A stretch of 63,313 nt of DNA, the filler included, from Parachlamydiales bacterium (GTDB taxonomy: Bacteria; Chlamydiota; Chlamydiia; Chlamydiales; Parachlamydiaceae), in the NCBI GenBank assembly GCA_020051075.1. It is 6 parts of 6 records of this genome, joined end to end, with 100 filler letters (N's around TTAATTAATTAA, not from the genome) between each part and the next. Parts side by side here need not be neighbours in the genome. Positions count along the whole stretch, not along the records: positions 10,445 to 19,667 come from JAGVJP010000046.1; 5 more parts are not named here. One strand, 5' to 3'. Positions within the stretch are counted from its first letter, which is position 1. Each line of letters opens with the position of its first letter. This document shows positions 11,750 to 14,260 of the stretch, in pieces. Position numbers and translations under genes: made by a program. The notes beneath the pieces are model-generated. The model did no database searches. It saw only the letters and a list, made by a program, of their open reading frames with translations, and had not been told where the DNA came from.

Positions 11750-14260
11750 TCACCATTCAGCGTCCTGACTTTTGACCCCTTTCATGTCATTTCTTCTTTT
11801 TTGTATGGCACTGAGAGAATATTGAACCATAGATTTTTGACGCTGCATAAGTTCTTCTTTTTCTCGCTCCAGTCTAACTTTCTTTTCTTCTGGTTTTTCT
11901 GGTGCTGCATCCCTAATCGATTCACTGCTCACAGATGGAATTGATTGTTTTGCAAGTTCGGATGTTGGAAGTCCAGTATCTAGAGGTTCGGTCGTTTGGG
12001 TTGGAAGAACTACACTGGTTGCAGTTCCTTCAGTATCTTCATCTATAGACCAATCATCATCCTCATTATCTTCAGATTCTGAAACTGATTTATCATCATT
12101 GCCCTGAAACTTACTTGTAGCTCTTGTGAGCCCCTTCGCCAAGACATGAGCAAGAGGAGATCCCTTCATCGGAGCCTGAGCAGTGGTTGAAACTGCCTTT
12201 TTAAGGGTCACAGCCGACAATTCGTTAGCCGATACAGTGCTTGAAACAGCCATGAAAACTGGTGCTGATGGTGGCGGTGGCGGCGGTGGTGGAACACCTG
12301 TGGTGTCTGACGGCGGTGGTGGTGTTGAAGCTAACGGAATAACACTTCCAAGATCATCAAATTGATTTTCTGGATTAGCCATCTCTTCAGGTATTTCCTG
12401 AGCAAGTTCTCTGTTTTGATCACCCTGAAACACTAGAGCCCCGGTTACTTGATCTTCAACGTTATCAACTGCAGAAGTGATTGGAAGCACCTCGGAATCA
12501 TCATCTCCATCGGTTGATTGAATTGAATCCTCGGAATCATCATCGACGTTCGCTTGAGTTTGTGCGGCTTGAGTTTCGCTAACACCGCTGGTGTCAGTGG
12601 TTTGAAGCGGTTTTACAGGAACATCGTCGTCGTCATCTTCATCTTCATCCGGACGGTTGTTTGCTTCTGGAGCTTTGACTGGTTTTCTAGCCTGGGTGTA
12701 CTCTGTGATACTTTCATTGATCTTTGTGTTAATGGCTTGAGTTAATCTTTTTTTCTTGATCAAAGAGGCGACTTCCGCTGTTTTATTCTCCATTTCCGGA
12801 AAATGCACCTTGATGAGAGTTTCAAGTTTTTGGAAATCATTTAATTTCTCGAAATTCTTAGGGAGTGTAAATTCAGTGTAATACTTATCGCTAATATCTA
12901 CTATTTCTAAAGTAATTAGATCAACAGCCTCGTTTACACGCTCTAGATTCGGGTTTCGGTGTTTGAGTTCTGCTCTCAAGAGATCCAAACTACCAGCAAT
13001 TGACTCCCTTGCTGCAGCATGATCTGCTGACCGACTCGCATTGATCTGATAGATCTTTCCCATTGTCGAAGCAATACTCTCGAAAATCTCGCGTGCTTCT
13101 ACAGATGTCTCAGCGATATTTCTCAACCATTCAATCTCTTCATGAATGACGAATTTGTTACTGTTAATCTTATTCAATAAGTCTTGAGCGGCTTCTTTAG
13201 CGGTCGCTAACTGTTGTCCTCGATTGCCTCCAAAATAATTATAGGTGACATTAGCTAAACGACCCATAGCGCTGTTGTCGTTAATGATGGCTTCTAACCT
13301 AGCAACCTCTTTAACTTGGGTGTGATACTTTTCCACTAAGGGTTTGAGGTACTCTTTCTGTTTTTTCAAATATGAGAACCTGTCTCTAGAAAATTGGACC
13401 GTTACATTGAACAAAGACCGAAGAACTTTCTCGTAATGGGGATATGAGTGGCGAGCTAACTTTAAGAGAGCACCGCCTTTTGAATCGTTTGTTCTGATAT
13501 TTCTGATCATGGACCGAATGCTTCGCTTTTGATTCAAAGTGGGGTCGTTTTCAATCTTATTGATTAAGTCCTCAGCCATGCCTTTCATCTCACTACGGGC
13601 TCTTTGAAAAGCGTTCCAACTCTTAGGAATCCCCTGAGAGGTTACCGCACTCGAATAACTTCGGACTGCTTGAAAATAATTGCTTAAGGTTACCCCGAAT
13701 TCATATTGATGCCGCAAGTGAACTGTTTTATCTCTGAGTTTTGCGATTTGTTCTGGCATATCTGAATAGCGGTGGAAATCTCGTGATAATTGAGTCACAT
13801 CTCGAGATAACTCAGCTTGGTTTAGTGCAGTTATCTGTGCTTCAGCAAAGTCGAGAGCCATTTTCATCTTTAGGAGGGAGCCATTGTTCGACAAAGGCTG
13901 ATTTCCTGCTTTAAGAGCTCTTTCTAGGTTTCTCACCCCACTTTTCACCTGTGATACAGTCAGCAACTCCTGATCATTTAGCACACCAAAGAGAGGGCCA
14001 AAGAAATAGCGGAACCATCTCCCCATGCCATTTGAAGCGTTTGCTTCAATTGGCCTTGCATTCAACTGCACAGGCAAAGCCTCAGTTGTAGGTGAAAATG
14101 CTGGAGTTGGAATAACGGATCTCTTTGAATCACTGGTGCTCAGCGACCCTGAAACACCGGTATTTGCTCCTGGAACTCCATTCGTTAAATGTGTTGAAGA
14201 AGAAAGGTTCGGATCTAAACTAGCCATAAACAACCTACTATTAATATTATTATTAAACAT
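11750..14260 (-). CDS. Orphan effector-like protein with polyproline, WH2-like, central and acidic-Trp motifs
   Basis: 836-aa ORF; PPPPPPPP, ELSAVTLKKA, SEDNEDDDW, C-terminal LSAIQKRR...DAEW. Confidence 0.75.
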   Translation of the reverse strand: MFNNNINSRLFMASLDPNLSSSTHLTNGVPGANTGVSGSLSTSDSKRSVIPTPAFSPTTEALPVQLNARPIEANASNGMGRWFRYFFGPLFGVLNDQELLTVSQVKSGVRNLERALKAGNQPLSNNGSLLKMKMALDFAEAQITALNQAELSRDVTQLSRDFHRYSDMPEQIAKLRDKTVHLRHQYEFGVTLSNYFQAVRSYSSAVTSQGIPKSWNAFQRARSEMKGMAEDLINKIENDPTLNQKRSIRSMIRNIRTNDSKGGALLKLARHSYPHYEKVLRSLFNVTVQFSRDRFSYLKKQKEYLKPLVEKYHTQVKEVARLEAIINDNSAMGRLANVTYNYFGGNRGQQLATAKEAAQDLLNKINSNKFVIHEEIEWLRNIAETSVEAREIFESIASTMGKIYQINASRSADHAAARESIAGSLDLLRAELKHRNPNLERVNEAVDLITLEIVDISDKYYTEFTLPKNFEKLNDFQKLETLIKVHFPEMENKTAEVASLIKKKRLTQAINTKINESITEYTQARKPVKAPEANNRPDEDEDDDDDVPVKPLQTTDTSGVSETQAAQTQANVDDDSEDSIQSTDGDDDSEVLPITSAVDNVEDQVTGALVFQGDQNRELAQEIPEEMANPENQFDDLGSVIPLASTPPPPSDTTGVPPPPPPPPSAPVFMAVSSTVSANELSAVTLKKAVSTTAQAPMKGSPLAHVLAKGLTRATSKFQGNDDKSVSESEDNEDDDWSIDEDTEGTATSVVLPTQTTEPLDTGLPTSELAKQSIPSVSSESIRDAAPEKPEEKKVRLEREKEELMQRQKSMVQYSLSAIQKRRNDMKGVKSQDAEW

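Follow-up and report, generated by a model that had tools for sequence, protein, structure and literature searches.

A Parachlamydiaceae protein family that joins a helical rod to a tail resembling the WH2, central and acidic regions of N-WASP and WAVE1

The stretch of DNA analysed here (63,313 nucleotides, hereafter the window) comes from the assembly of a Parachlamydiales bacterium (GCA_020051075.1; genome G000, 2.94 Mb, 43% G+C) and consists of contigs C11, C12, C15, C16, C18 and C33 joined by N spacers, across which genes are not true neighbours. Its subject is a gene that lies complete on C12 (window 10445-19667) and encodes an 836-residue protein, P0001. A first-pass annotation of 11750..12330 had reported five motifs there (polyproline, a WH2-like LKK motif, a helix and two acidic ends with Trp) and compared them with the WH2 (W), the central (C) and the acidic (A) parts, or WCA, of proteins that activate the Arp2/3 complex. 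All five motifs are present as quoted and in order, at the positions given, in a single minus-strand open reading frame (ORF). The interval holds the motifs and covers the last ~190 residues of the ORF; a folded N-terminal part of 450 residues, an amphipathic helix and a protein family had been missed. The true start is probably Met12 (window 14227), because a homologue with 55% identity, P0003, starts there and an AGG stands just upstream. The features of the gene are as follows, with the predicted local distance difference test (pLDDT) of the AlphaFold2 model given where it was used.

11750..14260, minus strand: whole ORF, member of the rod-WCA family; 836 aa, or 825 aa from Met12
14033..14260, minus strand: disordered leader rich in S/T/P/N, aa 1-76; candidate type III secretion signal, from composition and pLDDT < 50
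13976..14029, minus strand: aromatic/basic amphipathic helix, aa 78-95; candidate membrane anchor, from hydrophobic moment, conservation and model
12686..13975, minus strand: all-helical rod of tandem three-helix bundles, aa 96-525; defines the family, from AlphaFold2 and alignment
12323..12685, minus strand: acidic disordered linker, aa 526-646; pLDDT < 50
12269..12322, minus strand: polyproline tract with an 8-proline run, aa 647-664; candidate profilin or SH3 site
12194..12235, minus strand: degenerate WH2-like motif of the short type with LKK end, aa 676-689; from position and likeness to P0003
12050..12160, minus strand: first C-A module, with C-like helix aa 701-716 (12113-12160) and acidic-Trp motif aa 728-737 (12050-12079)
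11753..11893, minus strand: long charged helix aa 790-827, with second C-like segment aa 811-826 (11783-11830) and terminal Trp836 (11753-11755)

P0001 had been taken for an orphan, a view that the searches overturned. P0003 is 55% identical to it over the full length, and phmmer over 1.84 billion representatives returned 19 matches (P0001 and 18 others), all of which run across the helical N-terminal region. A profile of the rod detected the family in at least 6 of 73 Parachlamydiaceae genomes, representing five genera, and the family as collected through the rod has 22 full-length members; these genome counts are floors, few candidates having been scored in the first pass. Among 401 Chlamydiota genomes the rod was confined to Parachlamydiaceae apart from one weak match (G295, E 8e-4), while matches in G263 and G023 from the same search comprised the tail only, and G167, a seventh match among the 73 genomes, was left out of the count as a tail-region match on an unrelated protein. 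A profile search of a 5.8-billion set recovered three members, all known, and none of 593 candidate stretches was confirmed when metagenome contigs were searched for close relatives. This family, which we term rod-WCA, is apparently undescribed before. In a tree of its members P0001, P0003 and P0006 share a long branch of unsure placement; a WH2-like motif is present in P0006. In G031 the gene occurs a second time (G031:C64:2003-3145; L020, L022, L023), as pieces with internal stops, and in the subclade P0007-P0019 a conserved, helical-looking insert of ~50 residues separates the C helix from the last WH2.

In four of the five other genomes (G031, G009, G299 and G161) the gene is head to head with the same neighbour (51-59% identical), whereas in G014 the neighbour is different and the orthologue runs off its contig. 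The corresponding gene in the window serves as the synteny marker:

14476..15705, plus strand: divergently transcribed neighbour, 409 aa; no Pfam match above cut-off

Contamination or misassembly was considered and is unlikely, given that the P0001 gene is whole on C12 beside a UPF0158 gene on the same contig and has a full-length homologue at 55% identity as well as syntenic orthologues.

AlphaFold2 predicts that P0001 is folded and all-helical over aa 79-525 (mean pLDDT 82.6 over aa 60-530), disordered over aa 1-76 and aa 523-787, a short stretch at the prolines excepted, and helical again over aa 790-827. S/T/P/N make up 48% of the first 50 residues. The genome median is 20%, and 0.9% of the 2041 ORFs of the genome attain 48%. 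The injectisome component SctV is encoded in this genome (TIGR01399 above the NCBIfam cut-off, G000:C38), and a second FHIPEP gene scores below that cut-off. The earlier remark that a disordered, Ser/Asn-rich N-terminus fits type III secretion agrees with these figures, and the leader is a candidate secretion signal, judged on composition and disorder. A search for hydrophobic or transmembrane segments in P0001 found none (maximum 19-residue hydropathy 1.21). The amphipathic helix that follows the leader is helical in the model, has a hydrophobic moment of 0.73 and is identical to P0003 at 16 of 18 positions; its family consensus is FFNRxF, and at least 90% of 20 alignment rows have Phe87. It is a candidate membrane anchor.

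The rod is 70% identical between P0001 and P0003. Tandem three-helix bundles such as the spectrin repeats of plectin and alpha-spectrin dominate its structural matches, the best VIA match being plectin spectrin repeats (264 residues aligned, 7% identity) with a Z of 10.7 at a root-mean-square deviation of 9.1, a level that helical bundles reach without kinship. The Pfam spectrin signature was not matched by P0001 or the family, Foldseek gave no match to the rod at E <= 0.001 and the ESM Atlas gave no usable match. The VIA list showed no prominent BAR, colicin or translocon fold, but it is not evidence that such folds are absent and it barely covers aa ~410-530. For P0001 itself Pfam and NCBIfam returned nothing beyond weak coiled-coil matches, and no model of either library matched the family rod. 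The amphipathic helix and first bundles recur ahead of a RhoGEF domain in P0025, a paralogue in G299 (Pfam E 1.6e-8; hhalign probability 97.8), and a role of the N-terminus as a targeting module therefore fits. Two such proteins were found:

L011:1468-3033 (G299): P0025, family helix and first bundles joined to a RhoGEF domain, Pfam-confirmed
L024:412-2244 (G031): paralogue with helix, bundles and a RhoGEF-like part, assigned by eye only; Pfam misses the RhoGEF

The evidence that relates this family to activators of Arp2/3, the nucleation-promoting factors (NPFs), lies in its tails. A terminal acidic Trp is present in 20 of the 22 full-length members, which were collected through the rod, compared with 23 of the 2041 genome ORFs; the other two, P0021 and P0027, retain WH2 and C but lack the Trp. 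Of 20 held-out orthologues, 17 carry between one and three WH2-like motifs each, and the Pfam WH2 model matches 7 of 20 members at E <= 0.5, with P0026 and P0019 above the curated cut-off (13 sequences scanned). When a profile of 20 unselected members was compared with the PDB, five of the six matches at E <= 1 were WH2 proteins, the best being N-WASP (E 2.7e-5). When nine picked tails were made into a profile (A6), its W, C and A all aligned with N-WASP (6uhc, E 2.4e-8) and, Trp included, with WAVE1 (3p8c, E 5.1e-7); the 18 PDB matches of A6 are without exception WH2 proteins or WH2/WCA chimeras. Against this must be set that A6 was hand-picked and took three of its nine rows from a WH2 search, so the result is partly circular and amounts to a likeness of arrangement, not an independent discovery. 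The NPF-type module proposed in the first-pass annotation is thus supported for the family, in which orthologues have canonical WH2, C and acidic Trp and a profile match to N-WASP, and is weak in P0001: the profile alignment that it called for aligns the family tails with N-WASP and WAVE1 and leaves the WH2 of P0001 unrecognised. The QKR that it named as a motif of the WASP-family central region is not a conserved signature here: QKR matches the C region of N-WASP but is HTR in P0003, and what the family keeps in this region is a basic RR pair. Taken as a family, these proteins are probably direct activators of Arp2/3.

The order polyproline, WH2, C and A is given as the defining order of NPFs in a passage of PMC9569871 and also as that of Rickettsia RickA (passage in bioRxiv 10.1101/2025.08.14.669974). 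As in N-WASP and WAVE1 (PDB 6uhc, 2vcp, 3m3n, 3p8c), polyproline, WH2, central helix and acidic Trp follow one another in the rod-WCA proteins; unlike N-WASP and WAVE1, the family is bacterial and carries an amphipathic helix and a helical rod, and in P0001 the C-A module is doubled and the WH2 degenerate. Pfam matches to WH1, GBD/CRIB or the WAVE homology domain were absent from all 20 members scanned. P0001 appears to fall outside the WASP and WAVE families proper, resembling class I NPFs in layout and not by shown membership.

RickA offers a closer parallel: it is a bacterial mimic of NPFs whose N-terminal part is helical, which has prolines and a C-terminal WCA, and which lacks a Sec signal (passages in PMC11077975 and bioRxiv 10.1101/2025.08.14.669974). 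According to PMC11077975, in the part concerned, RickA is on the bacterial surface and has a repeat region of ~95 residues, whereas for our family we propose a type III route and a location at a host membrane. No named RickA came up when the full protein was searched and no RickA model matched, RickA itself never having been aligned directly; the best reading is that P0001 works like RickA, with no sign of RickA homology. The shared plan of rod, prolines and WCA, together with the lack of a transmembrane segment, would also suit a surface protein that is not injected and gives rise to actin comet tails in the cytosol of the host in the manner of RickA or ActA. We give this very little credence, as the amphipathic helix is shared with the RhoGEF paralogue, the leader resembles a type III signal and most chlamydiae replicate inside an inclusion.

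Among chlamydial effectors, Chlamydia pneumoniae SemD (CPn0677) is described in part of PMC10182996 as having an N-terminal amphipathic helix, proline-rich repeats and WH2 domains, and passages in PMC9569871 and PMC4222901 attribute WH2-like and proline-rich parts to Tarp. Like these, the rod-WCA proteins would be type III effectors acting on actin; unlike the rod-WCA proteins, which have a C-A of their own, SemD and Tarp reach Arp2/3 indirectly via N-WASP or Rac-WAVE2 (passages in PMC10182996 and PMC4222901). The claim that P0001 is distinct from Tarp agrees with library scans, where no Tarp-family model matched and neither Tarp nor SemD was hit in Pfam, NCBIfam or the PDB from the family, neither protein having been aligned directly. 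The family shares a layout with SemD, as judged from sequence, and not a detected homology. A more distant analogy, drawn by description only, is with Legionella MavH and RavH, effectors of another parasite of amoebae in which a membrane-binding N-terminus is joined to WH2-like motifs and actin is assembled on a membrane. Their membrane-binding part is a PI(3)P-binding domain, and a tandem-WH2 pointed-end nucleator is how RavH is described (passages in PMC13481308).

The likeness to SemD suggests a different function, in which P0001 would be a membrane scaffold of the SemD type or an actin loader like Ena/VASP, bound to membrane through the amphipathic helix, to SH3 proteins or profilin through the prolines and to G-actin through the short WH2, with Arp2/3 activation left to host WASP/SCAR. 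The order amphipathic helix, proline-rich repeats, WH2 is indeed that of SemD (passage in PMC10182996). The best-conserved parts of the P0001 tail are the prolines, the stretch before them and the LKK, not the C helices, and the short spacing from helix to LKK presumably resembles the G-actin-binding motif of VASP. Opposed to this are the terminal acidic Trp of 20 of the 22 members, for which a scaffold has no need, and SemD itself, which activates N-WASP and for which no C-A end is described in the relevant part of PMC10182996. We regard the scaffold as improbable.

Conservation between P0001 and P0003 shows which parts of the P0001 tail have been retained. The linker is 27% identical (aa 526-629), with 14 of 19 residues identical immediately before the prolines, and while it has drifted this far the prolines, the LKK and both Trp residues are kept. 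The 8-proline run, in the proline-rich region upstream of the WCA, is fully identical; five consecutive prolines occur in 9 of the 2041 genome ORFs. The WH2-like motif is identical at 8 of 14 positions, LKK included, and a short motif of this kind likewise stands after the prolines in P0021 and P0027. In the first C-A module the helix (C1) retains 3 of 16 residues (19%) and the acidic part (A1) 4 of 9, with Trp737 kept, and in the second the values are 4 of 16 (25%) for C2 and 4 of 10 for A2, with Trp836 kept. The Trp is thus conserved in both Trp-acidic sites noted in the first-pass annotation, which had staked its reading on conservation of the motifs in homologues, and the architecture is conserved. 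The long terminal helix is confident in AlphaFold2, and Trp836 occupies at least 90% of 20 alignment rows. Polyproline, LKK and acidic Trp occur in this order in P0001 alone among the 2041 ORFs (>=150 aa), and a slightly looser pattern arose in 0 of 20,000 single-residue shuffles of aa 526-836 and in 262 of 20,000 shuffles of 10-residue blocks, both patterns having been devised after the protein was seen. With a held-out WCA profile, both C-A segments of P0001 were among the top four domain matches of the 2041 ORFs. A double C-A is also found in the orthologue P0026 and in an unrelated Neochlamydia protein, and on the strength of this recurrence we argue that it is a usable design.

Several results weigh against P0001 itself being an activator. 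Pfam WH2 did not match its isolated tail, just as it found nothing across genome G000. A WH2 profile built from 25 held-out orthologue instances does not list the P0001 motif, and an anchored WH2 matrix ranks 1027 of the 2041 ORFs above P0001 but 79 above P0003 (two spurious instances were removed by eye before both were trained). A held-out CA profile lists neither C-A segment of P0001 and ranks P0003's counterpart of the second segment third, and the matches to the held-out WCA profile are not significant (first segment E about 0.6, the second-best domain; second segment E 2-6). C1 and C2 are no better conserved with P0003 than the linker is, and the terminal acidic stretch is short, with two acidic residues before Trp836. 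A PDB search with aa 645-745 gave a weak match to a Cobl WH2 chimera (E 0.49), below spurious matches to kelch designs, and one with P0026 alone gave no match. To these points are added the patchy distribution of the family (at least 6 of 73 genomes) and a case for secretion of P0001 that is compositional. Because the profile scores are poor, the motifs of P0001 were assigned more by position and orthology than by score. P0001 is among the least canonical members of its family; since its WH2 does no better against held-out profiles than chance would and its C helices have diverged as far as the linker, it may be a weak activator or a decoy.

CA fragments and Arpin-type inhibitors block Arp2/3. 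By analogy P0001 could be a decoy or damper, in which a worn WH2 delivers no actin and two acidic-Trp sites recruit or block Arp2/3 at the membrane. Such a role would account for a WH2 that scores at background while both Trp residues are conserved in P0003; a tail with C-A only exists in G023, and a second protein of the same genome with a cleaner C-A (G000:C59, below) could do the activating. The LKK and prolines are nevertheless conserved with P0003, whose WH2 is in the top 4%, and a WH2-like motif is also present in P0006, which stands nearest to P0001 and P0003 in the tree; we consider the decoy unlikely. The tail might also be decaying, with the rod doing the work (membrane tethering, for example) and an ancestral WCA eroding without function in this lineage. 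The long branch of P0001 and P0003, motif scores near background and C helices no more conserved than the linker are what erosion would produce, but the reading frame, the 8-proline run, the LKK, both Trp residues and the long terminal helix have all been kept relative to P0003 despite a linker at 27%, and we consider decay highly improbable.

On balance we lean towards P0001 still being a direct Arp2/3 activator, a divergent Parachlamydiaceae effector resembling class I NPFs, and we infer its secretion, actin binding and Arp2/3 activation from sequence. In such a mechanism the unstructured leader would send P0001 through the type III injectisome and the amphipathic helix would attach it to a host membrane from the cytosolic side, either where entry takes place or on the young inclusion. 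The helical rod and acidic linker would keep the tail off the membrane, where the prolines would gather profilin-actin or SH3 proteins and the WH2 would hand over an actin monomer. The C helix and acidic Trp could then bind and activate host Arp2/3, giving branched actin on the membrane for uptake or vacuole movement, and the second C-A module could occupy the second activator site of Arp2/3 from the same chain.

The core finding is the family and the phylum-wide pattern into which it fits, rather than the P0001 copy. Other proteins relevant to actin were found in the same genome and in cultured chlamydiae:

G000:C59:2832-4355 (locus L049:333-1853), plus strand: second NPF candidate, 507 aa, with three N-terminal hydrophobic segments, polyproline, C helix and acidic Trp
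G000:C63:15680-17440 (locus L013:433-2190), plus strand: RhoGEF (Dbl homology) protein, 586 aa, above the Pfam cut-off, with two hydrophobic segments
L067:1498-2649 and L068:1495-2649, minus strand: proteins of cultured Neochlamydia, hypothetical, WP_042241306.1 and WP_166155511.1 with relatives

The G000:C59 protein carries short WH2-like repeats, three or four in number, and a clean C helix, and no other C-A of the genome scores as well as its own; a search with its first 300 residues found no homologue except itself. Its hydrophobic segments give it the look of an inclusion-membrane protein, and it is possibly an NPF anchored in the inclusion. The N-terminus of the Neochlamydia proteins is unrelated to the rod; their prolines are accompanied by a C-A-like segment within the chain, then a canonical WH2, and lastly a C helix with an acidic Trp at the end. 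WP_042241306.1, from Neochlamydia S13, is annotated as hypothetical and provides a cultured counterpart. RhoGEF domains were detected in 30 of the 73 Parachlamydiaceae genomes (24 above cut-off) and in 0 of 14 control genomes (loci L050-L061).

Pfam WH2 matched 8 of the 401 Chlamydiota genomes. Five of the eight loci (G263, G357, G117, G229 and G380) combine unrelated N-termini with a WH2 and, after it, an end that is C-like and/or has an acidic Trp; in G074 an acidic Trp follows the WH2, and two loci are without a C-like or acidic-Trp end. The WH2-tail loci of these other chlamydial families are L008, L039 (G263), L041 (G357), L042 (G117), L043 (G229), L044 (G380) and L046 (G074). G263 has two WH2-tail genes close together, one with an FF end instead of the Trp. 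In G023 a 503-residue protein (L009:1033-2541) ends in a C-like helix and acidic Trp, has no WH2 match and adjoins a proline-rich paralogue. No actin gene was found in the 401 genomes; in fourteen giant-virus loci (L014, L025-L038) the actins are 60-79% identical to the first one found.

The chlamydial actin effectors described in passages of PMC10182996, PMC9569871 and PMC4222901 reach Arp2/3 through host N-WASP or WAVE2, and an IpgD orthologue has been considered a possible stand-in for Tarp in Protochlamydia (passage in PMC5451489). No description of WCA proteins in environmental chlamydiae surfaced in the literature searched, and the domain tables of chlamydial pangenome papers may list WH2 or RhoGEF; for RhoGEF, the one paper found with the term (PMC5451489) showed no passage on it in its main text, and actin, WH2 and RhoGEF go unmentioned in the portion of PMC9816063 consulted. 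A chlamydial W-C-A family bears on how amoeba-infecting chlamydiae steer host actin, and if the activator reading is correct another phylum joins the short list of bacteria with Arp2/3 activators. More tentatively, and in our view with less than even likelihood, environmental chlamydiae may possess a self-contained, undescribed actin toolkit, in which WCA tails sit on many unrelated scaffolds (the rod family, the G000 protein resembling inclusion-membrane proteins, at least five other families and Neochlamydia), RhoGEFs occur in 30 of 73 genomes, a direct route to Arp2/3 is widespread and the double C-A fills both sites. Direct activation of this kind would contrast with the indirect Tarp and SemD route of Chlamydiaceae. 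The natural series of tails, with one to three WH2 motifs, an insert before C, a double C-A or a worn WH2, also provides material on what a minimal activator requires.

Elsewhere in the window, a 726-residue ORF at 23765-25945 (minus strand) includes a long run of tandem repeats, ~45 bases in period, which shows up as self-matches at 24780-25745. Repeats of 70-240 bases at 15746-15963, 17405-17556, 19591-19667 and 35128-35291 are present on many contigs of the genome; some of the short repeats in the window occur as inverted pairs and are possibly miniature mobile elements.

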